From a candidate division FCPU426 bacterium (lineage in GTDB: Bacteria > Oederibacteriota > JAAXVQ01 > JAUVAV01), in NCBI GenBank assembly GCA_030591525.1, contig JAUVAV010000004.1:3307-67306 (forward strand): 64,000 nucleotides of DNA. The letters run 5' to 3'. Numbering within the stretch: the stretch's first letter is position 1; every line of letters starts with the position of its first letter. Shown here piece after piece: positions 3,001-61,686 of the stretch. The notes below the pieces were generated by a model. It saw only the letters and a list, made by a program, of their open reading frames with translations, was not told the DNA's origin and did not search any database. A program made the position numbers and the translations under genes.

Positions 3001-6000
3001 CTATCTATGTTTACAACCGAATAAATGCCTTGCCGCTCTATGGTTTTTTTCATTTTAGCCAGCGGATTATGGCCAGCCTTTAAAATTATAACACCCAGCT
3101 TTTTCAATAGACTTGCAATTCCATATTTGGCTATATATTCTCTTATATGATTAGGTTTGATCCTTATAGTCATATCCGAAAACAAATAAACGTAATCACG
3201 TATCACGGCCGCAATCTCGTGCGGTTTTGATTCCGGATCGTGCATAATCCCTGCCATTTCATCAAAAGCGTTTAATATTTCCCTGTTCTTGTATGTTCGG
3301 CCGTTATACGTAATCTCAAAATCCCCGCCATCATTGACCGGCAGCCAGCCGTGCGGAGTTATTTCGCCGAAAACATTCTGGAGGTATAGTTCCGTTTGCC
3401 CATAGTAGAAATCGGCTATTTTATTCAGTATCGGACTTTTAACATAATTTTCCGTAGTGACGATTTCTTCATCAAGAAATCCTATCGCTATCAATTCGTT
3501 GATTTCTTTGAATGTATTTCCCCCCCAGCCTTTATGAAAAACCCAGTCTTTTAAATTCCAGATATCTTCATAGGCATGGGAATTCAACCATTCAAAATAT
3601 TGATAAGTCCATACGTTATCTTTGCCTAAAGCCTTGTTGATTTCTCCGTTCTCACCTTTAATTGCCTTTTCTGATCTACTACTTACTTTTTCAAGAATAT
3701 AGGCAGAAAGCCAAATAGCCATCTCCCATTGAGCTTTTTCATCACTATTTTTATCTGCTTCTGCCCGCCGTCCAGTGTATCCCAGCACAAGCTGGTCATG
3801 AACTTCCTGCCACCACGCGACAGAAGTCCTGGCAATACCGTTTAATCCCACATAAGGTTCAGACACCCCTATTTCTTTAAAGTACCCGGCAAAATTCTCC
3901 CAGGCTTTTATATGCTCCGGCAGTAAATCCGCCGTGATTTCTTCATAAAGCTTACTATCCATAAAAGCCTTGACGTCCCCCCGAATTGCTTCAACTGTTT
4001 TTCCTTGAAAATTTTCCTTTATGGCAGTCTCACATTTGTCGGCTATTCCATTTTTAATTCCTTCAATTTCTGTTTCGATATCTTTGATAACCGCATTTTC
4101 AAATATTTTCTGCACTTCTTCATACTTTGAGCATAATTCCGCCCACCATTCCTTGCTATCAACCTTTTCAGGATGCATCTTTCGTTCATTTTCCACTAAA
4201 GTTTCTATTCCTCTATCGCCCTTGTAATCAAATCCTTCGAACCAGGGCAGATGGTACGCGCGAATAGCGCCGCCCTTATATGCATCATGGTTTCCCAAAA
4301 CCAATTTAACTTTATCCGGAGCAGCCATTTTCAGGTTCAATGCTAAGAAAAAGCACTTAACCGGGTCATCAGCGCGGTCCGGCAAATCCAGATTGATTTC
4401 TATTCCGCCTTTAATGGTTTTCAATGATAAGCCTTGCTCATTCATCTGCTCTTCAACATCACGCTTCCAGTCAAGCAGGCCTTCAAATCCGCATGCCCTA
4501 TTTAAATATTCGCTTACATAATTGGTAAACTTGTTTATTTCTCCATGAATATCGGAAATAGTAAGAATCCGGGGTATCTGGCCTGTGCCTTTCTCATTCA
4601 GTTCTTTTTCAATCTCCCGGGTTAAGATTTTGATCTGTTTTCGACGCATTTCGGGATCTTTATGAGCCTTGATGCCTAATTCCTGGATTATCCGCTCTTC
4701 TGCTATATTTTGCGTGAACCAATATGTTGTATATTTGCTTTCCTCCACCTTCATGGCCACACCTTGAGACTCCTTACTCAAAAGCGATTCCGTCGCAAGG
4801 CGATTGAGCACAATTCTCGCTGATCTTGTGGGAATCTTCAACCTGTTCGCGACCTGCCTGGCGGACATGGGTTCGCCAAAAGATATTAACTCCTGGAGAA
4901 CACGCTCAGCCTCCGTTACATGCACTGGCTTCTCTTTTACCTGCAGCAGGGCTTCAATCATTGCTTTTATACGGGATATCTCAGCAGCTTCATTGACGAT
5001 CCGTTCTGATTCTTCCTTGGAATACATTCCCAGCAAAGCGTGCGCGGCATTTACATTATCCGGTACCACGTCGGACTCCTGTGGCACGGCGAAAACAATC
5101 TTGATCCTGCCGGGAATCTGAGAAGCCCGAACCTGCGCCATAATGATCATGGGATGATTGGCGCCCAGGATTTCTTCAGCTACTGAGGAATTAATAGTCT
5201 CAAACAGCGTGGAAATTGAGAATACGCCATGGGGGAAATCGATGACTGCCATGCGGGACTGCTTCTGCAAAGCTTCGATAACCATTTGAGGGCTTAAACC
5301 CGGAGCGTCAAATTCCATGATATGGACATGATAATGACTGGTAGGAATCATGGAAGATGGCATATTAATGTCAGCCAGAATATCGCCATAATCACCAGTT
5401 ATGGTTTGCTCAAAATCCTCTCTGGTATGATGTGTATCCGCCTGAGCTACTCCGCCTGCTTGGTCTCCAAAATCACTGCCCGGAATATACATAAGGTCAC
5501 TGATGCTGGTTATTTTTTCATGACCCTTAAGTCCGGATAGCAGCGTTTCACATCCATAAATCCCGGCGTCCTCTCCCTCCTGACGCTTGATATCCATGGC
5601 ATATCCGAAAGCAACATTTACTTCACCTGGAATATGCGATGGCATCATTTTAAAGAAAATGCTATTCTTCGGGCTCGCGGAGTCTCTCAGCGCTGCCAAC
5701 TCCGAGGTTTGTAATTTTGTTCCTGGGAGGGGCGTAAATGTCACAGAAGAGTCATCTGATCCTTGCATAATTAAGTCACGTATTTCTGCGGGATCTTCAA
5801 TGCCTCTAATAGTAGCCATATGAATATAAAATCCCTTGGCCGAGGTTTTGACACGATCAACATTGACCGGCACACCTCCCAGGAATTCACTTACCGCTTT
5901 AGATGATTCCTGATGGCTGATTTCGATCTCAGCTCCATCGACAACACTCTTTGATCCGGGATCGTTTTGCCTTCTCATCGCAATGTCACCAATGTAGAGC

Positions 6001-9000
6001 TTAATCTTAAGGCCTGCAGCCTTAATTGCATTCCTGATACCAGTGTAAATACGGTTAAAACCCGTGGTATTACAAGACACGACTATGGCTGATTCCACAC
6101 CCTTTAAACTTTCGAAATCCGACGTATCTAAAGAAAAAGCCCGGTTACCAGCTACTTCCGGGCCTTCGCCGCCCTGCCAGAGCCTGGCTTCAATGACATT
6201 CTTCTCCGCATAGGGTTTATAGATTTCTTCATTATTAATCCAGCCGGTTCTTGTTTCCGGAGCGCCTTTACCGCCGGTAGAAGCATCCACGACAATAGCT
6301 TGCTGTCCATCTTCACGCAATTTATCCAACAGATCGATAATAGAGCCTTGATAGGGCAACCCTGCTGCTTGAGCCGCTTCAAGATTTTTTTCCAAACCAT
6401 TAGCTATATACAAAGGATAGCCCTTAACTATTGCATCATAAGTCAAAGGCTTGGCTCTTCCTTCTTCGTCCACACTACCAGTATTGACAGCACCGATGAT
6501 TTCAAATCCGCATTTCCGGTAAAGATCAGCCACTTTCTTGCCAATGGTGCCATATCCATTGATAATGACTCTTTTCCGGGGCTGGATCAGGGCTGAGTAT
6601 CCTCCCTCGACACGCGGGCTTTTCTTAAAGGTCAGTAATATTTCCTTGCCATCTATGTTATACGCCATCTGGAAAAATTCAGCTTTGCCCTGGTAAATTT
6701 TTTCGACTTGCATCCCATTCGTTAAATAATGAAGATATCTTATTATGCCTTTTTCGCCGCTTTCGCGAAATGCCGCAGCTCGATTTGGGTCACTTTTGTT
6801 GAATTCAAGAAACTTCTTGAATTCATCCATCTCGCCAATTTCCACTTCATAGCCAACGCCTTGTTTAGCTACCATGGTGCCTACTTCTTGCAGAACATCA
6901 GCATAAAAAGCTGCCCGGTTGGCTTTTCTGATGGTGATTTTCGGTTCAATAACTAATCTTGATGCTATTTGTTCGACGCTGAAAGGCACATCACCGGAAG
7001 TCACCTCTCGCGACCCTGTGTCGGCTCCTGTACCCGGCGTCATTACCATCCCAATTAGAGCTAGCAGCGCCATAATCGAAGTAAATTTGCTCATCCCAGA
7101 CGAGAAGAGGCTGCGATTCCATATAGTATTCGCGATTTGGCTGATTTGCGGAGATGCGATCACAATAGCTCCGGCAATAACCAATCCTCCAAATACCCAG
7201 ACATTAAGACCGGCAAAAGCAAAAAGGCCCGCGCCTACTGCTATGACCGCAGTGCCAACAAGATACGGCAGGGCCGGGCGAACGGTTTTTAGCGCTCTGG
7301 TTACTCCGGTGTCTAAGAATTTCTGGCCCCGGTTCAGCATTCCGGCCGGCCCATTCATCATCTCACTTAAACCCGATTGTACTCCGCCGAACGCCGATGT
7401 AATTGAGGGTGCTGCCATCATTGCTCTTCCGGCCATTATTGGCATGACCTGGGCCATGGTGGCCTTCAGCGCTACCTTGACCATGCCGCCCTGCACTACC
7501 CGGCCTTGCATCAATTGGGCTTCAATCCCAGCTAAACTCCGGTTATCTAAAATGGAGAATTCAAAACCATTCAAAACCCGCTGGTGCTTGGCTAAGGCTT
7601 TCAGGCTTATACCATGCCCTATCGGCCGAACGATTAAAGAAGCTTGCAGAGCCGGAAACGGCACTTTTACTGTTCGAGTTTCCACATCCATTCTCGCGTT
7701 GTCCCAATCCGGCTTGGCTTCCGGATGGTTAGCCATTGCTTCTGTTACAAACACGCTAAGTTCTGGAATATTGATTTTCCCCTCTTCTATGCCGACTTTA
7801 GTAGTGTCTTGGAAGAATAAGTGTGCCATCATTGTATTGAAAATCCCGGCATCATGCATAAACGAGGATTCTAATCCCATAATATTCTGGTTCTGCGCCA
7901 GAAGCTTTTCCAAAGGCGTACGCTTGTTTCTCAGCAGGGCAAAATAGGGATTTACTATGTCGTGATGACAAAGGCAGGGTTTCACGCATACATACGATAT
8001 GTTATGGCGTTCCAATTCCTGGAGCACTTCTTCCTTATGATAACCGCCGGTTACCATCATCGCGAGCTTGGTCTGCTGCTTATCCATGCAGGCCAGGACG
8101 TTCTCCACAAACGCCAGGCTACGTTCATCAGCCACGCGGTAGAAAGTTCTTACTTCTTCAAGATAACTGTCCAGCTTATAGACCTCGGCATCCAGCATGA
8201 ATAAACCTTCTTTATCATGCCGGCTGATAAATTCCAGAAAACTCCCTACTTTGAATCCTTCGGGATTTTTACGAAATTGTACTAAATCCTTGGGAGCGGC
8301 GGAAATATTGACCAGTTTTTCTATAATATCCAGACGATGCTGAATTATATCCATGATCTGCTGATCGTCCGTGGTATACAACCGGCTGCGCAGCTGTTGG
8401 TCCAACTGGTCCAACTCATTAAACAGATCGTCGGAATCCACGTTTTCCGGGAAAATGTTCTGCCGCCGCGATACATAGCGCGCTAAATTCGAATAGGGTT
8501 TCATGTCCAGCTTTTGCCGCACCCCGTAATCATACATGTTTACGCTGTATTTCAAGACCGAGATATCGCCCTCGCGGAAAGCCTGCTTCTTCTCATCGAT
8601 CTGAGCCAAGGCCTTATTATATATGTTGCCCTTCAACTCATCGAGGGTCTCACGCAGGTCAAAGATATATCCCTGGCTCTCGTTGTTGAGAAAACTCATC
8701 ACGTTTTTCCGGTTGTCATCATACAGGGCCTGGGTCTCAATACCCTCCAGACGAATGGGATGCTTTCCCGTGGCCGCGTACAGTTCGGCCCCTGTGATCT
8801 TTCCCTGTTTCATCAGATAGTGAGCTGTATCCTTTTTCACCTTTTCCAGGGGAAAGTCCGCGAGCTTGGAAACATTAATCGGTATTGACTCGCCTTCCAC
8901 GGTTACCAGGTTCAAGCCATGCTTTCCTGCCAGGTCATCTATCATGCCGGCAATGTTATTCTGCACCTCGTAATTACAGTGCAGGTCCTGGACGCAGACC

Positions 9001-12761: not shown

Positions 12762-13415
12762 TTATTCCTTTGCGGCGCTGACGCGCTTATCCAGCAAGTA
12801 CATGAAAGATTTAACCAGTTTTCCTGCACGCGCCGCCGCATCGGGAAGAATAGTTATATCATAATCAGACGGCCGGCCGATAATCGGAGCTATAAACATG
12901 GGCCCTACTGCCACGGCTTGATCGCGATCCGCCTTAACCTTGATCTCTATCGTGCTGGCCTCGTCTTCATCGCTCTCCGCATCCTCGGCTTCCAGATCCC
13001 TGATCCGGTAGATCGGATGCGCTTTGGCCGTTACGCGCGTCCGTGCCCCGTACTTTCTCAGCTTTACTTCCAACAGAAAACCATAATCCTCGTCCACCAA
13101 CTCAACTTCTTCTTCGCTGATAATCTCCTCGGGCAGAACACTGTCATCCGTGGTTTCCGCTTCCTGTAAGTGCTTGGTTTTCCGGTATTCGCCCAAGGCC
13201 AGATATAAGTCATCGGTCATCACTTGCTGAACCATCTCCAGGGTCCGGGGTTCGCTTACAGGTATTACGCGTTGCGACTGACTTTTTCTCAATACCTGCT
13301 TGGAGGAGACCTTCTTATCCTTTACCCATTTGTAAATCCTCGGCTTGGCCTGCGCGCCGGCGACCCAACTCAGAAAGAACACAAACACCAGACTTAATAT
13401 CCATAAACGTTTCAT
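12762..13415 (-). CDS. Secreted hypothetical protein with a signal peptide and an acidic Asp/Glu-rich region.
   Basis: The N-terminal signal MKRLWILSLVFVFFLSWVAGAQA is followed by the acidic tract EEIISEEEVELVDEDY. Confidence 0.5.
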   Translation of the reverse strand: MKRLWILSLVFVFFLSWVAGAQAKPRIYKWVKDKKVSSKQVLRKSQSQRVIPVSEPRTLEMVQQVMTDDLYLALGEYRKTKHLQEAETTDDSVLPEEIISEEEVELVDEDYGFLLEVKLRKYGARTRVTAKAHPIYRIRDLEAEDAESDEDEASTIEIKVKADRDQAVAVGPMFIAPIIGRPSDYDITILPDAAARAGKLVKSFMYLLDKRVSAAKE

Positions 13416-21097: not shown

Positions 21098-21221
21098 TGG
21101 GAGCCTGAGCAATTAGTTGCTCAGGCTCCAGAGCATTTGAGATTCGATAGTAGAAATTAGATAAAATATCTCAAATGCGGTCTACTCTCTACTCTCAAAA
21201 AACCGACTAATTGTTCAGACC
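21098..21221. repeat. ~120-bp MITE-like element: a 12-bp-stem hairpin GAGCCTGAGCAATTAGTTGCTCAGGCTC plus a conserved 75-bp core.
   Basis: It lies between eno and the hybrid HK. The core agagcatttgagattcgatagtagaaattagataaaatatctcaaatgcggtctactctctactctcaaaaa is about 90% identical to the reverse complement of 32945-33025. Confidence 0.6.
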
Positions 21222-21365: not shown

Positions 21366-23939
21366 GTGATTTTTGATTCTGAAGCATCCCAACTTTTTTT
21401 CGGGGCGGCCTTCCTGGTTCTTGCCTTGGTGTTTTTTTTACTCCTGCTGGGTCTGATTTTTTACGTCAAATCATTGCGGGAAAAATATCGGCGGCTTCTG
21501 CGCCTACCGGCGGAAAAGGAAGTACCTCCGGCCTTAAGCACCACGAAAACCATCCTGGATAAACTGCCTTTTGGCATCTTTATCAGCAACCGGGAGAGAA
21601 AAATTCTCCAGGTTAATGCCGCGGCTTTAAAAATGATAGGGGCTGGTTCAGAACAAGAAGTCCTAAACCAGCTTTGCCATGAGATATTTCGTTTAACTCC
21701 CCAAGATCCGTGTCCTATTCTGGAAGAAGGCCGGCCAATAAACTCCAGAGAATGTTTTCTAAAAGGAATTGATAATAGTGAAATCCCGATTTTAAAGAAT
21801 GTTACACCTATTACCCTGGAAGGCGAAGAAGTCCTGCTGGAAACCTTTGTTCCTATCGAAGAACTTTATAAGGTCCGCCAGGAGGCCGAAGAGGCCAATA
21901 AAAGCCAGGCCGAAGCAGTGCAATGTTCTAATAATCTGGCTGTACTGGCCGAGCAGGCTAATTTATCCAAGAGCAAGTTCCTGGCAAATATGAGCCATGA
22001 AATCCGCACCCCTATGAATGCAGTTATCGGCATGGTACAACTGGTCTTGGATACGCAACTCAGCTCAGAGCAGCAAAATCATCTCAACAAAGCGCTTAAC
22101 GCCGCCGGGTCTTTGCTCAATTCAATCAACGACCTTCTGTATCTTTCCAAAATCGAGTCCGGCCATCTGCCCCTGGAGGAAATCAATTTCGACCTGCGTA
22201 CTACCATGGAAAGCGCCTCTGAAATTGTAGCGGGTAAAGCCAGTGAAAAAAACCTGGAATTAGCCTGCCATATTGAGCCCCAGGTTCCCACATCATTGAC
22301 CGGCGATCCTGGCCGGTTGCGCCAGATCCTCTTGAATTTGCTCAGCAATGCCGTTAAATTTACTCATCAGGGCGAGGTTATACTTTCAGCCGGACTCTCT
22401 AATGAAACCCATTCGCATGCTGAGTTGGTTTTCACAGTTTCCGATACCGGCATCGGTATTCCCGAGGATGAACACAAAATGGTTTTTGAATATTTTACTC
22501 AAGCCGGTGCCTCAACCACCCGGCGCTACGGAGGAACCGGATTAGGACTCCCCCTCACCAAACACCTGACGGAACTAATGGGCGGCCGGATTTCACTGGA
22601 GAGCGGGTCCGGGCAGGGCAGTACTTTTAAAATCACACTTCCCTTCCTGCTCCCAAAAGAGCCTCCTCCCGTATTGTCTCAAGCCAAGGATTCCTTAGCC
22701 GGCATCCGGGTTTTGATTGTGGATGACACTCCCATTAACCGGCAAATTTTTCAGGAAATGCTTAAAAAGTGGGATATGCAGACTAAGACCGCGGCCGATG
22801 GGCCGGAAGCCTTGAAAATCCTGGCATCCGCTTACCACGAAGGAAAACCATATCAGCTTGTGCTCCTGGATAAATTCATGCCTGATATGGACGGTTTCCA
22901 TACAGCTGAAAAAATAAGAAAGGGAGTTTTTGCGGATAAAATGAAAATTCTCATGATTACTTCGGCCGGGACACGCGAAGACGGGGTGCTTTGCCGCAAA
23001 TTGGACATAGCCGGCTATTTAACCAAGCCGGTAAAACAAACGGAGCTTTATAGCGCCATCATTTCAGTGCTGTGCCAAAAGGAAATACCTTCCTCTATAA
23101 AAACTCCTCTGGTCACCCAGCATTCCTTGCAGGAGCGCAGACGCCGCCTGGATATCCTCCTGGTCGAAGATAACCCCATCAACCGCGAATTGATGCTGGC
23201 CTTGCTGGCCAAGCGGGGAGAGGCGGTTACCGAGGCTGAGGATGGAATCCAGGCTCTCAAGGTCTTGGAAAATCATGTTTATGATCTGATATTTATGGAT
23301 GTGCAAATGCCAAACATGGATGGACTTAAAGCCACCGAGGAAATCCGGAAACGTGAGCAGGTTACCGGAAAACACACGCCCATTATTGCCCTCACAGCCC
23401 ACGTGTCTATGCAAGACCGGCAAAAATGCCTGGCCGCCGGCATGAATGATTTTATTGCCAAGCCGATTAAGCTCCCGGAATTCCACAAACTGCTGGAGCA
23501 TTATTCCAGCCTCAATTTGTCGAATAAAAACCTCTCTCCTTATTCTTCCCCAGCCGCCCCGAACTCCGAACCAGCCTCTGATCTGCCGGTTTTAGATATG
23601 AAGTCTGTATTGGACCGGGTCGACGGGGACCGGGAATTGCTGCGTGAGCTCTTACAAGACTTTATCAATATCTCCCAACAGTATACTAGTGATATGGAAA
23701 GCGGGATCCAGAGGCAGGACTGGGATGCCGTACGCCAAATTTCCCATACCTTGAAAGGATCCTCAGCCAACTTATCCTGCGAGCGAATCCGTAAACTGGC
23801 GACAAACCTGGAACAGATGGCGAGAACACACCCGGGGGAGGATAACCTCCGGCAGGAAATAAAGCAAATAAAGCGCGAACTGGAAAACCTCCGGAATTAC
23901 GTGGCATTAAACAAGGAAATATTCCATACCGCTTCGTAG
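21366..23939 (+). CDS. Hybrid sensor histidine kinase with TM, PAS, HisKA, HATPase, two REC domains and a C-terminal Hpt domain.
   Basis: It has the H-box MSHEIRTPMNAVIGM and the G-boxes DTGIGI and GGTGLGL. Two receiver domains carry VLIVDDTPINRQ...LLDKFMPDMDG and ILLVEDNPINRE...FMDVQMPNMDG. The Hpt domain shows ISHTLKGSSANL. Confidence 0.85.
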   Translation: MIFDSEASQLFFGAAFLVLALVFFLLLLGLIFYVKSLREKYRRLLRLPAEKEVPPALSTTKTILDKLPFGIFISNRERKILQVNAAALKMIGAGSEQEVLNQLCHEIFRLTPQDPCPILEEGRPINSRECFLKGIDNSEIPILKNVTPITLEGEEVLLETFVPIEELYKVRQEAEEANKSQAEAVQCSNNLAVLAEQANLSKSKFLANMSHEIRTPMNAVIGMVQLVLDTQLSSEQQNHLNKALNAAGSLLNSINDLLYLSKIESGHLPLEEINFDLRTTMESASEIVAGKASEKNLELACHIEPQVPTSLTGDPGRLRQILLNLLSNAVKFTHQGEVILSAGLSNETHSHAELVFTVSDTGIGIPEDEHKMVFEYFTQAGASTTRRYGGTGLGLPLTKHLTELMGGRISLESGSGQGSTFKITLPFLLPKEPPPVLSQAKDSLAGIRVLIVDDTPINRQIFQEMLKKWDMQTKTAADGPEALKILASAYHEGKPYQLVLLDKFMPDMDGFHTAEKIRKGVFADKMKILMITSAGTREDGVLCRKLDIAGYLTKPVKQTELYSAIISVLCQKEIPSSIKTPLVTQHSLQERRRRLDILLVEDNPINRELMLALLAKRGEAVTEAEDGIQALKVLENHVYDLIFMDVQMPNMDGLKATEEIRKREQVTGKHTPIIALTAHVSMQDRQKCLAAGMNDFIAKPIKLPEFHKLLEHYSSLNLSNKNLSPYSSPAAPNSEPASDLPVLDMKSVLDRVDGDRELLRELLQDFINISQQYTSDMESGIQRQDWDAVRQISHTLKGSSANLSCERIRKLATNLEQMARTHPGEDNLRQEIKQIKRELENLRNYVALNKEIFHTAS

Positions 23940-23966
23940 GGACCGCGCCATGTCCCGCCCCAGGAG

Positions 23967-24035
23967 ATAGCCAATTCTATATATGTTGCATCATAAGCAG
24001 ATAAATGATGTTCTCTGGTCAATAACAAAGCAGTG
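23967..24035. repeat. 69-bp direct repeat (left copy) bracketing the AbiE cassette. It is a duplicate of the vapC 3' coding end.
   Basis: atagccaattctatatatgttgcatcataagcagataaatgatgttctctggtcaataacaaagcagtg matches 25711-25780 with 4 mismatches. The right copy lies inside vapC, encoding ...LLLAREHHLSAYDATYIELAM. Confidence 0.7.
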
Positions 24036-24077
24036 AATTTTAGGAGACGTTGTGGGCTGACCCAGGTTTAACGGACA

Positions 24078-24890
24078 CTACGTCGCGTCGAGCTTCTTCA
24101 ATGCACTGGTTAGATACTCTTTACTTATTAGACTTTCGTCAGCTGGATGCTCTAAAAAAGGTTGAATGTCCTTTATAAGTTGCTCGTGGTTGATAGTATC
24201 CAACTTTTTAAGTAAAATAGCGGGCCACTCTTTTGGCTGCCATTCGATTTTTTCCTGGTTTTGTGATAAGGCATTTTTTAATTGAATCAAATTAGGTGCA
24301 ATTTTTGGCTTTTGCGCTAAATACCAAATAAGATCATACCAGTCCCGGCCTTTTAAATACTTTCGCGTACACAAAGCATGGATTTTACCAGCCATCAGAG
24401 AAGACAGATCATGATGCATTACTGCAAAAAGCAGATGTTTTTGAACAAGTTTTCGCTCCAAAACTGCGCCTGGGGGAGGCTGACTATCGATTTCAATTTT
24501 AATTGACAACTTTTGGTCCCTCAAAGGTGATAAATGTAGTTCTTTTAAAACATCCCGGATTTTAATCCAGCCTACATGGACAACGCCGGTATTATTCCAA
24601 GTCAGGTCAATATTATAATTTTCATAGATGAAATCTTTTTTTAATTTATGCATCCATTTTTCGAAATGGTAATTTGACTTATTTTCCAGCGAAAAATCAA
24701 GATCCTCTGAAAACCTGGGCAAGTTATATAAGAACCGTAAAGCTGTTCCCCCCACAAATGAAATATTTTGAAAAGCTTTACTTTCGTGCAAAGAACGGAG
24801 AATAAAAGCTTGCAGGTATTCTCTTACATAATTTAGTTTTTGATTAATGTCTTTAATATCCTTAACGGCTAGTAATAGCGATTCTTTCAT
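24078..24890 (-). CDS. abiEii: AbiEii/AbiGii-family nucleotidyltransferase toxin (type IV TA / abortive infection).
   Basis: SFVGGTALRFLYNLPRFSEDLDFSL is the signature N-terminus of DUF1814/AbiEii. Confidence 0.75.
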   Translation of the reverse strand: MKESLLLAVKDIKDINQKLNYVREYLQAFILRSLHESKAFQNISFVGGTALRFLYNLPRFSEDLDFSLENKSNYHFEKWMHKLKKDFIYENYNIDLTWNNTGVVHVGWIKIRDVLKELHLSPLRDQKLSIKIEIDSQPPPGAVLERKLVQKHLLFAVMHHDLSSLMAGKIHALCTRKYLKGRDWYDLIWYLAQKPKIAPNLIQLKNALSQNQEKIEWQPKEWPAILLKKLDTINHEQLIKDIQPFLEHPADESLISKEYLTSALKKLDAT

Positions 24891-25528
24891 TAACTTGCGT
24901 ACTCCTGATTATTTTTTTGACCATAACTAAGCCAATGTTTAAAAATACTCTCCAATCTTGGAGATTTGTACTGATCCAGATAATTTTTCAGCCGTTCTGT
25001 TTTAATGGTGTTCAACTGCTGAAAACGCAAGCTCTCCAAACGGCCTAATGACCATTCGCCTGATGTCAGATAAAAGTAATCCAACAATGCTTTTTCAGGA
25101 GTTGCCAGCCAAACTTCCTGATCCTGTATGGTTTGTCTTGAATAGCCAAAAAATAAATCCGCCTTAATATGATGGTAATAAAATCTGCCAAATGCGTTAT
25201 TAAATTGACGTGTTGTTCTGGTAGTTACTGAAGAATAAATATGGACTTGCTCAGGAATCAGACCATAAAAATTCAAACACCACAATCCACTTAAATATGA
25301 CGGCCCATAAAGCTGATTAGCTAAAACCAAGGGATTAAGTTCGGTTTGCCGATATGGCGCAGCAAAGGTATATAGCTCCCGCTTGAGTGCTACCAGTTTC
25401 CCGGACTTGACCAGGCGATAGAGCTGGGTCTTAATGCTTTGTGGCTTTTCATCAAATAATTGTAAAACGGTTGCCATGTCAAACATAGGCAAGATATTTA
25501 GTTTTTCAATCAAGTCGCTGTATTTCAT
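24890..25528 (-). CDS. abiEi: AbiEi-family antitoxin/transcriptional regulator. The start was chosen at MKYSDLIEKLN, and the ORF track extends it to 25588.
   Basis: It is immediately upstream of abiEii and overlaps it by one nucleotide. It has the length and order of AbiEi, with a winged-helix-like N-terminus. Confidence 0.55.
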   Translation of the reverse strand: MKYSDLIEKLNILPMFDMATVLQLFDEKPQSIKTQLYRLVKSGKLVALKRELYTFAAPYRQTELNPLVLANQLYGPSYLSGLWCLNFYGLIPEQVHIYSSVTTRTTRQFNNAFGRFYYHHIKADLFFGYSRQTIQDQEVWLATPEKALLDYFYLTSGEWSLGRLESLRFQQLNTIKTERLKNYLDQYKSPRLESIFKHWLSYGQKNNQEYAS

Positions 25529-25629
25529 ATACACTATTATACATAATTGTCTATTAATGTAAACGTTAATCGTGATGCATACTTCCACAAATGCCCGGGG
25601 TCAAAGTTAGCTTGTAATTCCGCCCCTGT

Positions 25630-26043
25630 TCACTCCCATAGCTTTACTCCAACTTTTTTAGCTGCCTTCCGTAAGGTCAGGTCCAACGTGGCGAAAGGTA
25701 TGCCTTCCCGCATAGCCAATTCTATATATGTTGCATCATAAGCAGATAAATGATGCTCTCTGGCCAATAACAAAGTAGTGGAAAAGGCCTTATATGTCGT
25801 ATCTTGATCCACTACAATTGGCAATGAATTTAACAGACTCAAAAATCGTGCAGAATCCGCCTCTTTAAGGCGCCGGCGTCTTTCCGCTACTAAAAGCACA
25901 TTTGAAACTTCCAATGGCCATAAACTCGGCACTATGGCCTCGGAACGAGATAGTGCTTCCAGTATTTTTTCGGTATCCAGCGTAACTTCATCCTCAAAAC
26001 ACCAACTCATAGTTACCGAACAGTCCAGCACAAACCGCTTCAA
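25630..26043 (-). CDS. vapC: PIN-domain ribonuclease toxin VapC.
   Basis: It contains VLDCSVTMSWCFEDE...AYDATYIELAMREGIPFATLD with the PIN acidic residues. It overlaps the upstream antitoxin gene by 4 nt. Confidence 0.8.
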   Translation of the reverse strand: MKRFVLDCSVTMSWCFEDEVTLDTEKILEALSRSEAIVPSLWPLEVSNVLLVAERRRRLKEADSARFLSLLNSLPIVVDQDTTYKAFSTTLLLAREHHLSAYDATYIELAMREGIPFATLDLTLRKAAKKVGVKLWE

Positions 26044-26282
26044 AATCTTCTACCTTCCCTGATCATGGATTTCAGATTCGCTTTCCCAAGCTTTTTGCCT
26101 TTACTAAACTCCTTTAGACTTTGGATAGTCAATTTCGTATCCGTCCTGCCTAAAGCCGGGGCCGGGATGATCTGCGCTACCGGCATCCCATGCTTAGTAA
26201 TGATATAATTCTCACCCCGCGCCACTTTCTCTAATATCTCAGGCAGATGAGTCTTAGCTTCATAAGCGCCTACCGTATGCAT
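26040..26282 (-). CDS. Type II antitoxin (Phd/YefM-like) partner of VapC.
   Basis: It is 80 aa, contains ...AKTHLPEILEKVARGENYIITKHGMPVAQIIP, and sits translationally coupled upstream of vapC. Confidence 0.65.
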   Translation of the reverse strand: MHTVGAYEAKTHLPEILEKVARGENYIITKHGMPVAQIIPAPALGRTDTKLTIQSLKEFSKGKKLGKANLKSMIREGRRF

Positions 26283-26624
26283 TATCCCCTCCTATTTAAA
26301 CTAGTCTTATACTAGTCTATATTATATTTGCAATATTATCAACCTGTTTTTATGTAATCCGGGTAATCCGGGACGTGAGTGAGCGCAATATAAAAAAAAC
26401 GAATTACCCGGGGAGCCTACCGGACTTTGTTGTTGACTTATGATATAATGACAGCAGTTTCCCCCTTTTCCCTGGACAAAACCATCCAGGACTGGCAAAA
26501 AGGGGGATCGAGGGGGATTTTATAAGTGATAAATCCCACCTAGGATGTGTATTCTTCCCTGGCTTGGCATATTGCATTAGACAGGTTTCTTTGCCTTTTC
26601 ATTCATTTTTTTTAATTTTTTCTA

Positions 26625-26663
26625 TATTGCGCTCACTTACTGACTAACCAACGTCCCGGATTC
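26625..26663. repeat. Left ~38-bp inverted repeat of the 26667-27188 cassette.
   Basis: Its reverse complement, gaatccgggacgttggttagtcagtaagtgagcgcaat, is about 92% identical to 27258-27295. A third partial copy lies at 26344-26381. Outer inverted repeats of the GGGGGAtcGAGGGGGATTTT type lie at 26500-26525 and 27345-27370. Confidence 0.6.
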
Positions 26664-26666
26664 ATA

Positions 26667-27188
26667 CTATATCTTTTCGCCACCTCTCAACATATACGCT
26701 GATTCATTTCTTTGCTTAGCAGTCCAACTACTTAATAAATATCGTTGGGCTGTTGAAAAATGCTCAGCCCAAAATGCCAACAATATTTCCATATTCCTTT
26801 TTTCGCTAGCCTTCTCTCTTAAAGATTCCCAAAAATCTTTCCCATCATCATATTTTTTCATTGCTTGACGGACTTTATTGCCTTCTTCTTTAATTAGCTT
26901 GTCCAATTCCTTAATTCTTTTAATTATAGTTTCTTGTTCTATATATGGCATGCAGCTAGCAATTACGGATATTTTAAATATCTTATAGTCCTTATTCTCT
27001 TCAAGCATTTCATTTAAAGTCTGTATAAATGGACTATTGCAGTTCCTCATTCTTTCTGAAACCAAACATATTTCGTCATATAAAATACTTAACTGAATTT
27101 CTAGAGGCGGACTTTTTTTCTTAGATAAAATGATATATGAAATAAAACTTATGATAGCAACAGCAATAATAATGTCGTAGATTCCCAT
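26667..27188 (-). CDS. Hypothetical membrane-anchored coiled-coil protein (cargo of an inverted-repeat-flanked cassette).
   Basis: An N-terminal TM helix IIIAVAIISFISYIIL is followed by a charged helical region. The local sequence is AT-rich and bounded by ~38-bp inverted repeats at 26625-26663 and 27248-27308. Confidence 0.45.
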   Translation of the reverse strand: MGIYDIIIAVAIISFISYIILSKKKSPPLEIQLSILYDEICLVSERMRNCNSPFIQTLNEMLEENKDYKIFKISVIASCMPYIEQETIIKRIKELDKLIKEEGNKVRQAMKKYDDGKDFWESLREKASEKRNMEILLAFWAEHFSTAQRYLLSSWTAKQRNESAYMLRGGEKI

Positions 27189-27247
27189 AAATAGACCCTT
27201 ATTACATTAGCATTAAATGTACTTCAAACTGCTCCTTCGGCGGAACG

Positions 27248-27308
27248 GTAATCCGGTAATCCGGGATGTTGGTTAGTTAGTAAGTGAGCGCAATGAATTA
27301 CCTGGGGC
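27248..27308. repeat. Right inverted repeat of the cassette (ggtaatccggtaatccgggatgttggttagttagtaagtgagcgcaat).
   Basis: See the left copy at 26625-26663. Confidence 0.6.
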
Positions 27309-27453
27309 AAGCCCCAGGAAATCTAACCTGATTTATTATTTGTAAAATCCCCCTTCATCCCCCTTTTTGAAAAGGGGGAACTTGAAAAAAATGCCTTTTA
27401 TTGTTAAGTCCAACAGGCTCCCAGGCATAAACATTCCAGCCAATCAGGTATCC

Positions 27454-27534
27454 GTAGGGGCCGGCTTCCATGCCGGCCCATGGTTTTAAATTCACGCGCA
27501 TGGGCGGACATGGAAGTCCGCCCGTGCGAAAACA
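27454..27534. repeat. Reverse-orientation copy of the two-hairpin unit, lying 3' of pfp.
   Basis: ccgtaggggccggcttccatgccggccca...gggcggacatggaagtccgccc is about 85% identical to the reverse complement of the 53437-53507 unit. Confidence 0.55.
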
Positions 27535-27552
27535 TTAATATCCATCCATCAT

Positions 27553-29379
27553 TTAAATAATCCGCGTTTCCTCTCCCAGGTCAAAATCCAACCCGGCACA
27601 ACCCTGGTTTAAAGCCACAGTTATGGGAAGCTGTCCGGCCACCGGGCCCCAAAGCTGGCGGGGACCGGGCGAGGAGAAGCAATCCTCTCCGGCCCAGCGT
27701 TCCCGGACCGAGAGAAAATATTTAAAAGCAGGCGAATCGGTCTCGACCAGGGCTTTTTCAATCACCATCTCATCCCGGCCGTGCCGCCGTTCTACATGTA
27801 TCAACCCGGTCAGGGGCAGCGCCAAGGCCTCGCCGCCACAATCCAGGGCGCTTATAGCCGCCATGTAACCGGTCTTGCCGGCCAGGGCCAGAGACCCGGC
27901 CGTTAGCCCTAAATTAAAAGTATAAGCCGCGTCAAACCGGCTGGGCGCTCCACAACGTCCTTCATACCCGAAGAAATGACTATTAGTGGCAAACCGGGAC
28001 TTTACAAACCTTTCGACTTCTTCCGGCGCTAAATCTATCTGCTCTTCCGCCTGACCGATAAAGGGCGCGGGATTGACTTTCATTTCGTGCAGACGTATAT
28101 TTACCATCTCAATTAATAATTTTTCGGTCGGAATCTGGGAAACCTGCAGATTACCGTGGGAATCGCGGTCCAGGAGAAGCATGTTCTCAAACTCATGCGG
28201 CAAGGAAGCCATCAGTTTGACTGACTCGGCCGATATTTTTCCATAGATGAAATCCTTTTTCTCCGCCATGGTATTAAGTTCGCTTAAAAGCCGGGCCGAA
28301 TCAGCCATGACCTCATTAAGTTCCTTTATCAATATTTTCATCTCCGGGATAAACTCGATCAACCCTTCGGGAATTAAAATCACGCCATAATTTATACCCC
28401 GGCCCGCCCGCCGGGCCACAGACCGGCAGATAATATCCACGATCTGGTGCAAAGAGAGTTTTTTTTCCTCGAGTTCTTCCGAGATAAAGGCGATGGCCGG
28501 CTTGGTCTGTAAGGCCACTTCCAGGGCCACATGGCTCGCGCTGCGTCCCATGAGCTTGATAAAATGCCAGTATTTCCGGGAAGAAGGTGTGTCCTGGAGG
28601 ATGTTGCCGACCAACTCGGAATATATTTTCGTGGCCGTATCAAAGCCGAAGGAAATCGGCAGCAACGCTCCTTCCTGGAGATCGCCGTCAATGGTTTTGG
28701 GAACCCCGAGAACCTGCACGCCCCGCCCGTCGGCATGCACATTCTCAAAAAGATACTCGGCCAATACGGCGGCATTGGTATTGGAATCATCGCCGCCGAT
28801 AATCACCAGGGCATCCACGCGCTGGTCACGGCAGACCGCTTTAACCAGCTTGAACTGCCCATGATTCTTGATCTTGGTACGGTCCGTACCCAGAAAATCA
28901 AACCCGCCGGTATTCAGGAGCCGGTTTAAATCTTCTTCCTTGATTTCAAATAAACTGCCTCCCAGCAGACCTTTTGGCCCGTGTTTCACGCCCAGTAAGA
29001 CATTATCCGGTCCCAGGGCTTTTTTTAAACCCGCTAAAACATTATGCCCCCCGGCCGCCGGACCGCCGGAAAACAGGACTGCCACGCGTTTCCCGGATAC
29101 CAGGGGACGGTTCGCAATATCCGCCTTTAAAACGCGGTCCCCGGTCTGGGGATATAATTTCGGAAAAGCTTCGGCCACCCGGTTTAAATCACGGTTTTCC
29201 GCCAGCTTCTCTTCCGACGGTTTGAATCCGGCCGGCGCGATTTTCTTGTTTTCAATAAAAGCTTTTTTCACGGGCAGAGGAAGATTCCTCACCTCTCTCT
29301 CAAAAAGCGAGCGGTTTTTCTCGGTTTCTTCCCATACCCGGATCAAATCCGGATTGGCGGTTTTAGTGCTGGATGACAT
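27553..29379 (-). CDS. pfp: Pyrophosphate-dependent phosphofructokinase (long type, 608 aa).
   Basis: It carries the motifs GGPAAGGHNV, IIGGDDSNTNAA (Asp at the ATP/PPi-discriminating position), GVPKTIDGDL and LMGR. Confidence 0.8.
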   Translation of the reverse strand: MSSSTKTANPDLIRVWEETEKNRSLFEREVRNLPLPVKKAFIENKKIAPAGFKPSEEKLAENRDLNRVAEAFPKLYPQTGDRVLKADIANRPLVSGKRVAVLFSGGPAAGGHNVLAGLKKALGPDNVLLGVKHGPKGLLGGSLFEIKEEDLNRLLNTGGFDFLGTDRTKIKNHGQFKLVKAVCRDQRVDALVIIGGDDSNTNAAVLAEYLFENVHADGRGVQVLGVPKTIDGDLQEGALLPISFGFDTATKIYSELVGNILQDTPSSRKYWHFIKLMGRSASHVALEVALQTKPAIAFISEELEEKKLSLHQIVDIICRSVARRAGRGINYGVILIPEGLIEFIPEMKILIKELNEVMADSARLLSELNTMAEKKDFIYGKISAESVKLMASLPHEFENMLLLDRDSHGNLQVSQIPTEKLLIEMVNIRLHEMKVNPAPFIGQAEEQIDLAPEEVERFVKSRFATNSHFFGYEGRCGAPSRFDAAYTFNLGLTAGSLALAGKTGYMAAISALDCGGEALALPLTGLIHVERRHGRDEMVIEKALVETDSPAFKYFLSVRERWAGEDCFSSPGPRQLWGPVAGQLPITVALNQGCAGLDFDLGEETRII

Positions 29380-32926: not shown

Positions 32927-33051
32927 GCGTTTAGTCTGTTTTTGAGAGTAGATAGTAGAAAGTGGACCGCATTTGAGATATTTTATCTAATTTCTACTAT
33001 CTATTCTCAAATGCTCTGGAGCCTGAGCAACTAACTGCTCAAACTCCTAGT
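32927..33051. repeat. Inverted-orientation copy of the ~120-bp MITE-like element.
   Basis: It is bounded by ggagcctgagcgtttagtctg on the left and ggagcctgagcaactaactgctcaaactcctag on the right, between the RND gene and pfk. Confidence 0.6.
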
Positions 33052-53305: not shown

Positions 53306-53332
53306 GCTTTGCTCCGATAATTTTTTCCGTAG

Positions 53333-53507
53333 GCGCCGGACTTCCATGTCCGCCCGCATACGCGAGGTTAAATCCATGGGCCGGCATGGAAGCCGGCCCC
53401 TACAACTTCCAGAACAAGCAAGTGTGTACATTGTAGATGCGGACTTCCATGTCCGCCCGCATGCGCGAGGTTAAATCCGTGGGCCGGCATGGAAGCCGGC
53501 CCCTACG
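53333..53507. repeat. Two tandem ~75-bp copies of a two-hairpin unit (cggacTTCCATgtccg ... ggccggcATGGAAgccggcc-CCTAC).
   Basis: Copy 1 lies at 53333-53410 and copy 2 at 53437-53507, separated by 26 bp with 3 mismatches. Related inverted copies lie at 27454-27534 and 13440-13463. Confidence 0.65.
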
Positions 53508-53814
53508 AAAATGCATTCCCCAACCGCTCCTGCACCTCTTCCGCAGTTAGATTATCCACCCGTATCACTTTCCGCTGTGAAAATTCGCCCTTGATAATCT
53601 TTAAATTCCGGCGGGAAATACCGAGCCTATGGGCTAAATACTCAAGACATTCCCGGTTGGCCGCGCCGTTTTCCGGCTTTTTGGCCAATTTCATTTTAAG
53701 CGCTTTTTCCCAGGTACCTATAATTGCCGTGCTCCCGGCCCCGGGCTGAACCTTGACTTCAAATGTTGCTCCCCGGGATCCGGAAGAGACTTGAAAAGCC
53801 ATTTTTTCAGCCAA
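53503..53814 (-). CDS. DUF167 (YggU) family protein.
   Basis: It contains FEVKVQPGAGSTAIIG...LKMKLAKKPENGAANRE. Confidence 0.6.
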   Translation of the reverse strand: MAEKMAFQVSSGSRGATFEVKVQPGAGSTAIIGTWEKALKMKLAKKPENGAANRECLEYLAHRLGISRRNLKIIKGEFSQRKVIRVDNLTAEEVQERLGNAFS

Positions 53815-61530: not shown

Positions 61531-61657
61531 GGGCTACGCATGCGTAGCCCCTACACACCCGCACCAGGATATGTCGCACCTTACCGTGGGTAGGGGCGTT
61601 TAATTAAACGCCCCTACATCGCAAATCCACCGGGCCGGCATGGAAGCCGGCCCCTAC
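61531..61657. repeat. Three consecutive REP-like hairpins between the FIST gene and the tlpA-like gene.
   Basis: They are gggctacgcatgcgtagcccctac at 61531-61554, gtaggggcgtttaattaaacgcccctac at 61590-61617 and ggccggcatggaagccggcccctac at 61633-61657. Confidence 0.65.
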
Positions 61658-61686
61658 AAAATTCCAACCCCATACTTCCTACACGG

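Follow-up and report, generated by a model that had tools for sequence, protein, structure and literature searches.

A 69-nt orphan piece of vapC beside an AbiE module as a probable scar of recombination between islet versions in a candidate division FCPU426 bacterium

AbiE, the type IV toxin-antitoxin and abortive-infection system described in Lactococcus lactis and Streptococcus agalactiae (Dy et al. 2014, PMC3985639), is an overlapping two-gene operon in which the gene of an AbiEi-family regulator comes first and that of a DUF1814 nucleotidyltransferase, AbiEii, comes second. AbiEii is defined by motifs I-II (hG[GS]..DhD), III (K..A...R) and IV (+DxxD) (PMC3985639), and the operon has a promoter-like site no more than 60 nt from the start and is located on horizontally moving DNA. 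From what is known of the family, AbiEi would repress its operon, by binding to inverted repeats in the promoter, and counteract AbiEii, and AbiEii, a GTP-binding nucleotidyltransferase, would halt growth, so that a phage infection would be aborted or the carrier DNA stabilised. VapBC pairs with a Phd/YefM antitoxin are type II toxin-antitoxin systems, with the gene of a PIN-domain toxin placed after that of the antitoxin, and defence and toxin-antitoxin hot spots are variable stretches enclosed by shared core genes. In Rhs loci and in the T6SS effector-immunity arrays of Vibrio cholerae, orphan 3' toxin fragments have been ascribed to homology-facilitated illegitimate recombination (PMC5361080). 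In this process, homology holds one end of the arriving module in place, the other end is linked illegitimately, and the remnant of the resident toxin is pushed downstream in the same orientation. The locus described here bears a likeness to each of these systems.

The DNA analysed is a stretch of 64,000 nt (the window) from a 98.7-kb NCBI contig of a candidate division FCPU426 bacterium. Its pfk-to-kinase interval is a small variable islet of ~3.6 kb, for which close relatives carry different contents; in the window these are ORF173, a portable vapBC pair and an abiEi-abiEii pair, all on the minus strand (Table 1). The islet is like a defence or toxin-antitoxin hot spot in that relatives have its core genes in common (an AcrB-type transporter and pfk at one end, enolase and usually the kinase at the other), whereas each sampled relative has different contents, several of which are lower-GC toxin-antitoxin or defence modules. 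The islet differs from such islands in its very small size, in having its own A/B/C repeat family at the cassette borders, and in that no recombinase was found nearby. The stacking of defence and toxin-antitoxin modules pointed out in an earlier note on this DNA is thus borne out, the islet holding, besides AbiE, both vapBC and the cassette that the note had placed at 26344-27308.

Table 1. Features of the islet and its kinase flank (window positions).
Feature	Positions	Strand	Basis
Hpt-encoding kinase 3' end with 27-nt flank, L080 allele type	23640..23966	+	L080/L084 alignments
R' (left copy), orphan internal vapC fragment	23967..24035	-	66/69 identical to 25712-25780 (R)
54-base stretch: 42-nt spacer (24036-24077) and last 12 nt of abiEii	24036..24089	-	L084 alignment
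abiEii, DUF1814 nucleotidyltransferase toxin, 270 aa	24078..24890	-	Pfam PF08843 7.6e-23; PADLOC 1.3e-70, full length
abiEi, antitoxin/transcriptional regulator, 212 aa, ATG at 25528	24890..25528	-	PADLOC 2.2e-52
Promoter-like site of abiE: TTTACA, 16 nt, TATAAT	25536..25563	-	11/12 consensus matches
vapC, intact PIN-domain toxin, 137 aa, contains R	25630..26043	-	Pfam PIN 3.2e-10
vapB, Phd/YefM-type antitoxin, 80 aa	26040..26282	-	Pfam PF02604 4.7e-10; NCBIfam TIGR01552 2.5e-9
vapBC block, discrete portable unit, ~730 nt	25623..26354	-	same ends across relatives
Neighbouring cassette: ORF173 (26667-27188, GC 0.32) and C/B/A' repeat block (26402-26663)	26355..27380		repeat families

The identities of abiEii, abiEi and vapC, as named in the earlier note, were confirmed by Pfam and PADLOC profile matches. 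AbiEii carries VGG..DLD at residues 46-65 (motifs I-II), KIHALCTR at 169-176 (motif III) and RDWYD at 182-186 (motif IV). Residues 1-199 of AbiEi align to positions 1-194 of the PADLOC profile, and it does not reach the curated thresholds of Pfam AbiEi_3 (18 vs 26 bits) and NCBIfam NF047376 (19 vs 150 bits); the 212-aa gene was also called on the metagenome contig L082. Unlike known AbiE, this AbiEi is recognised by PADLOC sub-family models only. Both genes lie on the minus strand, and the stop codon of abiEi and the start codon of abiEii overlap by 1 nt (TAATG). The promoter-like site is the top-scoring one in 23700-26500; its second hexamer is followed, after 7 nt, by the ATG of abiEi, and a short ATTAT..ATAAT palindrome is the sole inverted repeat visible in it. 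The deviation in GC for which the earlier note had proposed a check was found, the content being 0.36 for abiEii and 0.385 for abiEi against 0.49 for the window and 0.52-0.53 for pfk and enolase. Among the AbiEii homologues found, one close relative is 98% identical and all others are at most 57% identical. The abiEi-abiEii pair is a complete, autonomous, separable and compositionally foreign module that starts after the vapC stop codon.

In the vapBC pair, the antitoxin gene comes first and overlaps vapC by 4 nt, and VapC retains its acidic residues (D7, E45, the D of SAYDA and the D of ATLD). This order, the overlap and the ~730-nt mobile block constitute its likeness to type II VapBC with a Phd/YefM antitoxin, and we consider that VapBC would work as a separate toxin-antitoxin pair of this type, apart from AbiE. 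The nucleotide identity of the block to that of relatives is 98.5% (L080), ~97.5% (L100), 94.5% (L090) and 95.1% (L096-L099), and in L096-L099 it stands in a context unrelated to the window on both flanks. An exact look-up of the window VapB protein returned no record. AbiE and VapBC are here known kinds of system, and the pair itself is ordinary in comparison with other VapBC pairs; the oddity is an orphan copy of the most conserved stretch of vapC, 1.7 kb off.

This orphan copy (R') and its counterpart within vapC (R) form a direct repeat of 69 nt in which the two copies are 1745 nt apart and share a run of 44 identical nt, and ~1.7e-26 chance matches of this kind would be expected per 64 kb. 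The repeat reported in the earlier note is therefore real, with three mismatches instead of four and a right copy starting at 25712 instead of 25711. It had been described as the 3' coding end of vapC, but it corresponds to internal codons 88-111 of 137, and vapC continues for 82 nt beyond R, to 25630. The DNA between the copies, described as carrying abiE only, accordingly contains the low-GC abiEi-abiEii pair and also the tail and stop codon of vapC. The order is vapC head, R, vapC tail with stop codon, abiEi, abiEii, a 42-nt spacer, R', 27 nt and the kinase stop codon, with R' antisense to vapC in the direction of the kinase. R' lacks a start, a tail and the fourth acidic residue of the PIN domain. 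Outside the ends of the repeat, the in-register identity falls to chance (7/30 and 4/30), and with the repeat masked no further similarity to vapBC was detected. A longer vapC pseudogene around R', which the earlier note had named as an outcome that would speak against its reading, was rejected on these flanks and on a tblastn search in which no remains of vapB or vapC appeared; R' measures exactly 69 nt. Where the five vapC alleles vary, R' is of the window/L080/L100 type, and its three differences from R are private with respect to all five, two of the three being non-synonymous.

For comparison, the locus was retrieved in five related versions, all comparators being metagenome contigs of 1-12 kb. 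L080 has vapBC, a 127-nt repeat spacer and then the kinase; it lacks both abiE and a second copy of the repeat, and it becomes similar to the window again precisely at 23966, the base adjoining R'. L100 and L084, two separate short contigs from the same sample that are presumably linked across a gap of 36 nt, show the vapC-abiEi junction as in the window and an abiE that is 98.2% identical and adjoins the kinase, with no R'. L090 carries a very different AbiE pair (29-37% aa identity to that of the window) directly behind the same vapBC block. R' was absent outside the own vapC genes of L080, L084/L100, L090/L091 and L103, and among the sampled versions only that of the window has it. Across genomes, the islet is more alike than its flanks, vapBC being 97.5-98.5% and abiE 98.2% identical; between genomes that share near-identical islet modules, the kinase bodies differ by 10-25% and pfk and enolase by ~10%. 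The contigs of two pfk alleles (P0134 and P0131) end shortly past pfk. Genome contigs scanned with the hybrid kinase gave paralogues at 34-47% identity only and no orthologous locus, and a protein search with the Hpt domain alone gave no scoring match. Exact-pattern scans of metagenome contigs (repeat core and abiEii 3' end) and of viral contigs (repeat core) also gave none, the collections apparently being without this organism.

The earlier note had taken the repeats as the mark of a site-specific or homology-mediated insertion that placed an AbiE cassette in the 3' end of vapC; the repeats would then be the duplicated target or attachment site. This reading would account for direct repeats that bracket a compositionally foreign abiE, and among the relatives, in which the note had suggested seeking an empty site, L080 has the same vapBC and kinase flank and no abiE. 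However, vapC is not interrupted: VapC has its full length, L080 encodes exactly the same protein, and the vapC tail lies between R and abiE, whereas an insertion with target duplication would put the tail after R'. The similarity of vapC to L080 runs past R through the stop codon, to 25628, and the two diverge only there, 82 nt past R, whereas in a target- or attachment-site duplication the copies would directly flank the inserted DNA and the empty site would have one copy at the point of insertion. Moreover, abiE occurs at the same junction in L100/L084 with no second copy, and R' is therefore not a by-product of the arrival of abiE. Target duplications made by transposases are far shorter than 69 nt. 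The integrase or recombinase that the note had proposed to look for nearby did not appear among the proteins checked: there was no recombinase gene in the insert, no integrase or transposase domain by Pfam on 26 window proteins, and no recombinase in the Pfam notes on relatives' homologues of most other window genes. Scans of the whole window gave no tRNA gene and no Rfam match, and a prfC remnant sought in the window was not found. R' is not a target-site or attachment-site duplication, nor is it part of AbiE or VapBC, and an insertion of AbiE into vapC is very improbable. L080 itself could be either a pre-insertion state or a deletion derivative, the direction of the event being ambiguous.

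The neighbouring cassette has repeats of its own. It is bracketed by direct A-type repeats (26355-26389 and 27249-27294), ORF173 is flanked by inverted A/B repeats, and a further B repeat lies at 27330-27380; within the window, the families concerned (D2, D8, I1, I2 and I3) were found in that interval only. L100 has the empty site of this cassette, with 27256 joined directly to 26363. An integron reading is unproven: the attC core (GTTRRRY) was not visible by eye in the A/B/C repeats at the cassette borders, and no integrase was found in the window.

The flank of R' on the other side is a mosaic. From 23966 to 23667, the window is identical to L080 at 280 of 300 positions (93%), and then ~75% identical; the relation to L084 is the reverse, with ~57% over these last 300 nt of the kinase gene and then ~90% upstream. 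A kinase protein alignment was also made for this comparison. R' thus adjoins an L080-like kinase 3' end, the remaining kinase being L084-like, and the alignments point to a probable recombination breakpoint within the kinase gene at ~23610-23670. On the side of abiE, the similarity to L084 stops at window position 24090, after which L084 has 23 nt to the kinase stop codon. The junctions at 24036 and 23966 are abrupt and leave a filler of 42-54 nt; a scar of homology-facilitated illegitimate recombination would have one homologous crossover and one junction lacking homology, the latter often with filler or a short microhomology. A short-word BLAST of 24036..24089 against the window and all fetched loci matched only itself and its copies in L081-L083.

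We therefore propose that R' is an orphan internal vapC piece, a scar left when versions of the islet recombined and at least one of the junctions formed illegitimately; to this reading we assign a probability of roughly 0.6. The two islet versions have been observed, namely vapC by a type-1 kinase 3' end (L080) and vapBC-abiE by the kinase (L100/L084), and an L080-like and an L100/L084-like version would have recombined. One crossover would have taken place near 23650, in the kinase gene, and the second junction would be illegitimate, leading from the abiEii end through the 42-54 nt filler into the middle of a vapC, either incoming or resident, and the tail of that vapC and the spacer behind it would be lost in the same event or later. 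The geometry of the locus, the mosaic kinase, the comparison of L080 with L100/L084, the allele type of R', an islet more alike than its flanks, the portability of vapBC, the lack of a recombinase among the proteins checked and the precedent of PMC5361080 favour the scar. Against it count the lack of an intermediate among the sampled relatives, such as an R' still with its tail, the lack of a source for the 42-54 nt spacer among the sequences searched, and the R'/kinase-flank junction, at which no microhomology is visible with L080 as proxy for the parent. The model requires at least two breakpoints or two events. The likeness to the Rhs and T6SS cases (PMC5361080) would extend to the homologous anchor, the illegitimate join and the displaced remnant in the same orientation. 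In contrast to them, the remnant here is an internal scrap cut at both ends, there is a single layer and no array, the homologous anchor is apparently the kinase gene on the far side, and the mechanism is a putative one. R' is most probably what remains of a second vapC gene, and with abiE placed behind an intact vapC the locus is ordinary. Recombination between R and R', by way of their run of 44 identical nt, could delete abiE and would swap the VapC tail, including the fourth catalytic acidic residue.

The same order could arise by a Campbell-type event, in which a circle with R, the vapC tail, abiE and a spacer integrated by one crossover in R of the resident vapC, followed by deletion of the second tail and the repeat spacer. 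It predicts exactly the order head, R, tail, abiE, spacer, R', and a perfect run of 44 nt is probably enough for RecA-dependent recombination. It needs, however, an extra deletion of ~210 nt ending at the kinase flank, it does not accommodate the abiE of L100/L084 that has no R', and it leaves the association of R' with a swapped kinase 3' end unexplained; such a circle or donor was also not found in the pattern scans. We regard this course of events as unlikely. A templated patch, in which the 69 nt were copied, together with filler, from the resident vapC 1.7 kb away during break repair or a template switch, is somewhat less unlikely but still doubtful. The shortness and abrupt ends of R', the adjoining filler with no identified source and the fact that R' has the window's own allele at vapC-variable sites are in keeping with such a copy. 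The three private substitutions weigh against it, since a templated copy would then have to be old or error-prone, and the L080-type kinase end by R' is not explained by a patch itself. With the present data, the patch is hard to separate from the scar.

The possibility that reads of two strains present together were wrongly joined at the 44-nt run common to R and R' was also considered, as the samples are metagenomes with several related strains and two Logan contigs, L082 and L083, end within the repeats. However, a JGI contig from an independent assembly (L081) is 100% identical to the window all the way from abiEi, via R', to the kinase and the DNA upstream, indicating that the order did not arise from a misjoin in a single assembly, and the 98.7-kb contig spans both R and R'. 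An assembly artefact is accordingly extremely unlikely. Equally improbable is a maintained functional element, for instance a read-through RNA of the kinase that is antisense to vapC mRNA and damps the toxin. R' indeed follows the kinase stop codon by 27 nt and is, in that direction, antisense to vapC, with no terminator-like site in between, but it occurs in one sampled version only, and two of its three changes are non-synonymous, as drift would give. A structured RNA in R' was rejected on its folding, which is no better than that of shuffled sequences on the two strands (z = +1.4 and 0.0), and a terminator in R' was rejected as well.

It might be imagined that vapBC serves as a docking platform for AbiE modules, given that two AbiE pairs as different as those of the window and L090 stand directly behind the same vapBC, with R and R' in the window then acting as a recombination switch, in which a single crossover would eliminate abiE and at the same time exchange the catalytic tail of VapC. 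Although this idea is quite improbable, the pairing could come from a coupling of function, or from a site favoured for entry at the hairpin behind the vapC stop codon.

Swaps of this kind leave short gene scraps that mimic insertion signatures. In genome scans, therefore, a direct repeat around a foreign module is insufficient to call a target duplication, and the question is settled by the position of the remaining part of the gene and by comparison with relatives. With little import beyond the locus, the islet provides a small and clean example of toxin-antitoxin and defence modules being shuffled among closely related uncultured bacteria, apparently via recombination in flanking core genes and not by dedicated mobile-element machinery.

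A repeat search over 22000-28000 reported a single strong direct repeat, 69 nt long and identical at 66/69 positions, with a spacing of 1745 nt and a longest perfect run of 44 bases common to both copies; the chance expectation for such a match in 64 kb was ~1.7e-26. The repeat that the earlier note described as bracketing abiE is therefore real. The note had also placed the repeated segment at the 3′ coding end of vapC and abiE inside that end. However, the right copy comprises codons 88-111 of the 137 in vapC, with the conserved stretch SAYDATYIELA, and between it and abiEi come the remaining 82 nt of vapC, stop codon and fourth PIN acidic residue included; abiE is thus located after vapC, not within it. 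In-register identity directly outside the repeat ends was at chance (7/30 and 4/30), with the repeat masked, 23900-24120 no longer resembled any part of the vapBC block, and tblastn with VapB and VapC as queries gave no additional match around the left copy, indicating that the repeated unit spans 69 nt and no more, and does not belong to a larger decayed gene, such as the second vapC pseudogene considered previously. Three changes are private to the left copy, and two of these are non-synonymous, as would be expected for a piece released from selection. The window is part of a 98.7-kb NCBI contig, and the order abiEii, left copy, kinase was matched at 100% in an independent JGI contig (L081), which makes misassembly of the repeat arrangement most improbable.

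Features of the islet (the variable interval between pfk and the hybrid kinase gene) and of its surroundings
Feature	Coordinates	Strand	Remark
Hybrid kinase	ends 23939	plus	
Kinase Hpt domain	23610-23939		two allele classes
Left repeat copy	23967-24035		
abiEii	24890..24078	minus	Pfam PF08843, PADLOC AbiEii model
abiEi	25528..24890	minus	PADLOC AbiEi models
Right repeat copy	25712-25780		inside vapC
vapC	26043..25630	minus	PIN domain
vapB	26282..26040	minus	Phd/YefM type
Direct A-type repeats	26355-26389, 27249-27294		bracket cassette segment 26355-27380
Inverted A/B repeats	26496-26662, 27258-27369		flank ORF173
A/B/C repeats	26355-26663, 27249-27380		confined to the islet in the window
REP-like palindromic repeats	27444-27523, 53329-53511, 61624-61661		~75 nt, common to relatives

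The identity of the cassette as abiEi/abiEii was confirmed. AbiEii matched its Pfam family (7.6e-23) and, over its full length, the PADLOC model (1.3e-70), and it contained all four motifs required for toxicity and GTP binding (Dy et al., PMC3985639), and AbiEi matched its models over its full length from the ATG at 25528 (2.2e-52), with a score that does not reach the curated cut-offs of Pfam and NCBIfam. One base is common to the abiEi stop and the abiEii start, the top promoter-like site of the region (TTTACA-16-TATAAT, 25563-25536) is just upstream of abiEi, and by sequence abiE is a complete, self-contained two-gene unit. The second hexamer of this site ends 7 nt before the abiEi ATG (25526-25563), and the abiE mRNA would be leaderless or nearly so if the site and the start are both right. 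abiE is compositionally foreign, in line with the lower GC noted earlier: GC is 0.36 for abiEii and 0.385 for abiEi, against 0.49 for the whole window, 0.44-0.46 for vapBC and 0.52-0.53 for the core genes pfk and enolase. VapC itself is intact; L080, a contig from a relative without abiE, encodes the identical protein. Upstream of vapB, at 26296-26322, lies ACTAGTCTTATACTAGTCTAT, within which ACTAGTCT occurs as a direct repeat; it may be an operator for VapB autoregulation. The families concerned, AbiE and VapBC, are well described, and those of their membership features that lend themselves to testing were found here. No integrase or recombinase, for which a search nearby had been suggested, was found by Pfam on 26 window proteins and, for most of the rest, by the annotation of homologous genes in relatives, and whole-window scans gave no tRNA gene or Rfam family.

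Five further versions of the locus were recovered from uncultured relatives by means of cluster listings and exact-protein look-ups, and the core genes share ~90% nucleotide identity with those of the window; the closest named kinase paralogues are from candidate division FCPU426. L080 (GCA_048634795.1) consists of an unrelated ORF, a repeat block, vapB-vapC (98.5% nt), a 127-nt spacer built from the same A/B/C repeat family and the kinase 3′ end, with neither abiE nor a second vapC piece, and it resembles the window through vapC as far as 25628 and again from exactly 23966, the base adjoining the left copy. L100 and L084 (both SRR19174372), non-overlapping contigs presumed to be linked across a 36-nt gap, carry the repeat, vapB-vapC, abiEi, abiEii, 23 nt and the kinase stop codon, with abiE 98.2% identical up to 24090 but with neither the left copy nor the 42-nt spacer. 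The presence of abiE does vary among relatives, as the earlier note had supposed. L087, L091 and L090 (ERZ25073601/2) carry pfk, four unrelated ORFs, vapB-vapC (94.5%), a different AbiE pair, prfC, a repeat block, the kinase and enolase; L085 carries pfk, prfC, a Y1-transposase-like gene and enolase, without the kinase or the islet; and L103 carries enolase, the kinase and then unrelated genes. The same ~730-nt vapBC block (95%) is found in L096-L099 in a wholly different neighbourhood. At sites variable among five vapC alleles, the left copy is of the L080/L100/window type. A regulatory antisense role of this copy is hardly credible, given that only one version of the locus contains it and that shuffled sequence folds at least as well as either strand.

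As side observations, prfC (release factor 3) is situated between pfk/islet and kinase/enolase in two relatives (L090:3282-4871; L085:7833-9434) and is absent at this locus in the window (23940-27552), in L080 and in L084; tblastn gave no copy anywhere in the 64 kb of the window. The Y1-transposase-like gene (PF01797, 337 aa; L085:9539-10552) occupies the kinase position of other relatives, and a fragment of such a gene follows vapC at L097:1362-1601. The two Hpt allele classes have ~60% nucleotide identity, type 1 ending in ..NKEIFHTAS (window, L080 and, more loosely, L103) and type 2 in ..SNIK or ..SNIQ (L084, L090).

The vapC-abiEi junction of the window is that of L100/L084, where there is no second vapC piece, and hence the left copy was not created by the arrival of abiE. 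Insertion of AbiE into vapC with duplication of the repeat, as originally proposed, is contradicted by this and by the geometry and is very improbable. The islet contents are more alike (vapBC 97.5-98.5%, abiE 98.2%) than the surrounding genes, with kinase bodies differing by 10-25%, and vapBC and abiE have moved recently between lineages. The window kinase is also a mosaic, being 93% identical to L080 and ~57% to L084 over 23966-23667, whereas upstream of ~23650 it is ~90% identical to L084 and ~75% to L080. The window thus combines an L084-like chromosome and abiE with an L080-like kinase end, and the breakpoint near 23650, in the Hpt domain, suggests that recombination reaches into a signalling gene. 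The left copy lies exactly between the two parts, and in L080, vapC adjoins that kinase end.

We therefore favor, with a probability of roughly 0.6, the explanation that the left copy is a remnant of the vapC linked to the type-1 kinase end, trapped by recombination between vapBC-kinase and vapBC-abiE-kinase versions of the islet. Both parental types exist, the breakpoint is within the kinase, both fragment junctions are abrupt, and L100/L084 lack the fragment. The second junction would be illegitimate, leading from the last abiEii codons through 42-54 nt of filler, whose source is to be found neither in the window nor in the loci retrieved, into the middle of vapC, and ~210 nt (the vapC tail and the repeat spacer) would have been lost in the same event or later. 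Such a pattern would correspond to what is known as homology-facilitated illegitimate recombination, which has been proposed to generate the orphan 3′ fragments of toxin genes seen in Rhs loci and in Vibrio T6SS effector arrays (PMC5361080). Its weak points are that no intermediate was present among the sampled relatives and no microhomology was visible at the junction. A 69-nt patch templated by the resident vapC and copied during break repair, which differs solely in the source of the copy, is a doubtful alternative; somewhat less likely still is a single crossover of a circular molecule (right copy, vapC tail, abiE) into vapC, which yields the right order but needs an extra deletion and leaves the link to the swapped kinase end unexplained. 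The direction of events at the islet can be read either way. A crossover between the two copies would delete abiE and is predicted to yield a VapC of 133 aa, where 22 unrelated residues take the place of the final 27, among them the fourth acidic residue.

The neighbouring cassette at 26344-27308 was substantiated as a presence/absence unit: L100:1-113 joins window 27256 directly to 26363, and the ~890 nt missing there comprise ORF173 (GC 0.32), which had no family match, and a C/B/A′ repeat block. The local short-repeat family (A, AATCCGGGACGT..AGTGAGCGCAAT; B, AAAATCCCCCTTNATCCCCCTTTTTG; C, CTGCTGTCATTATATCATAAGTCAACAACAAAGTCC) recurs at cassette borders of relatives (L080:700-960, 1695-1821; L090:4879-5018; L087:11835-12008, 12910-12961), and the slot adjoining pfk holds unrelated ORFs of 173, 156, 218 and 240 aa in four relatives. 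The A repeats resemble recombination sites or the borders of cassettes, but no recombinase was found to go with them. Elsewhere in the window, an 84-nt segment located upstream of the kinase gene (21113-21196) has an inverted copy with 94% identity ~12 kb away (32951-33034), near an AcrB-type transporter gene, and the minus strand of 1-7000 is one stop-free frame over the whole first 7 kb, a giant gene of at least 2332 aa that runs off the window and is missing from the ORF listing.

The AbiE pair at L090:1639-3145 shares only 29% (AbiEi) and 37% (AbiEii) amino-acid identity with that at window 24078-25528, and two lineages carry these divergent pairs at the same place, immediately behind a common vapBC block (94.5% nt). 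This is the one mildly intriguing point, and it could reflect hot-spot chance, functional pairing or allele replacement through homologous flanks. The setting is of an already known kind: a compact variable hot spot flanked by core genes, in which modules are swapped, with a scar of recombination.
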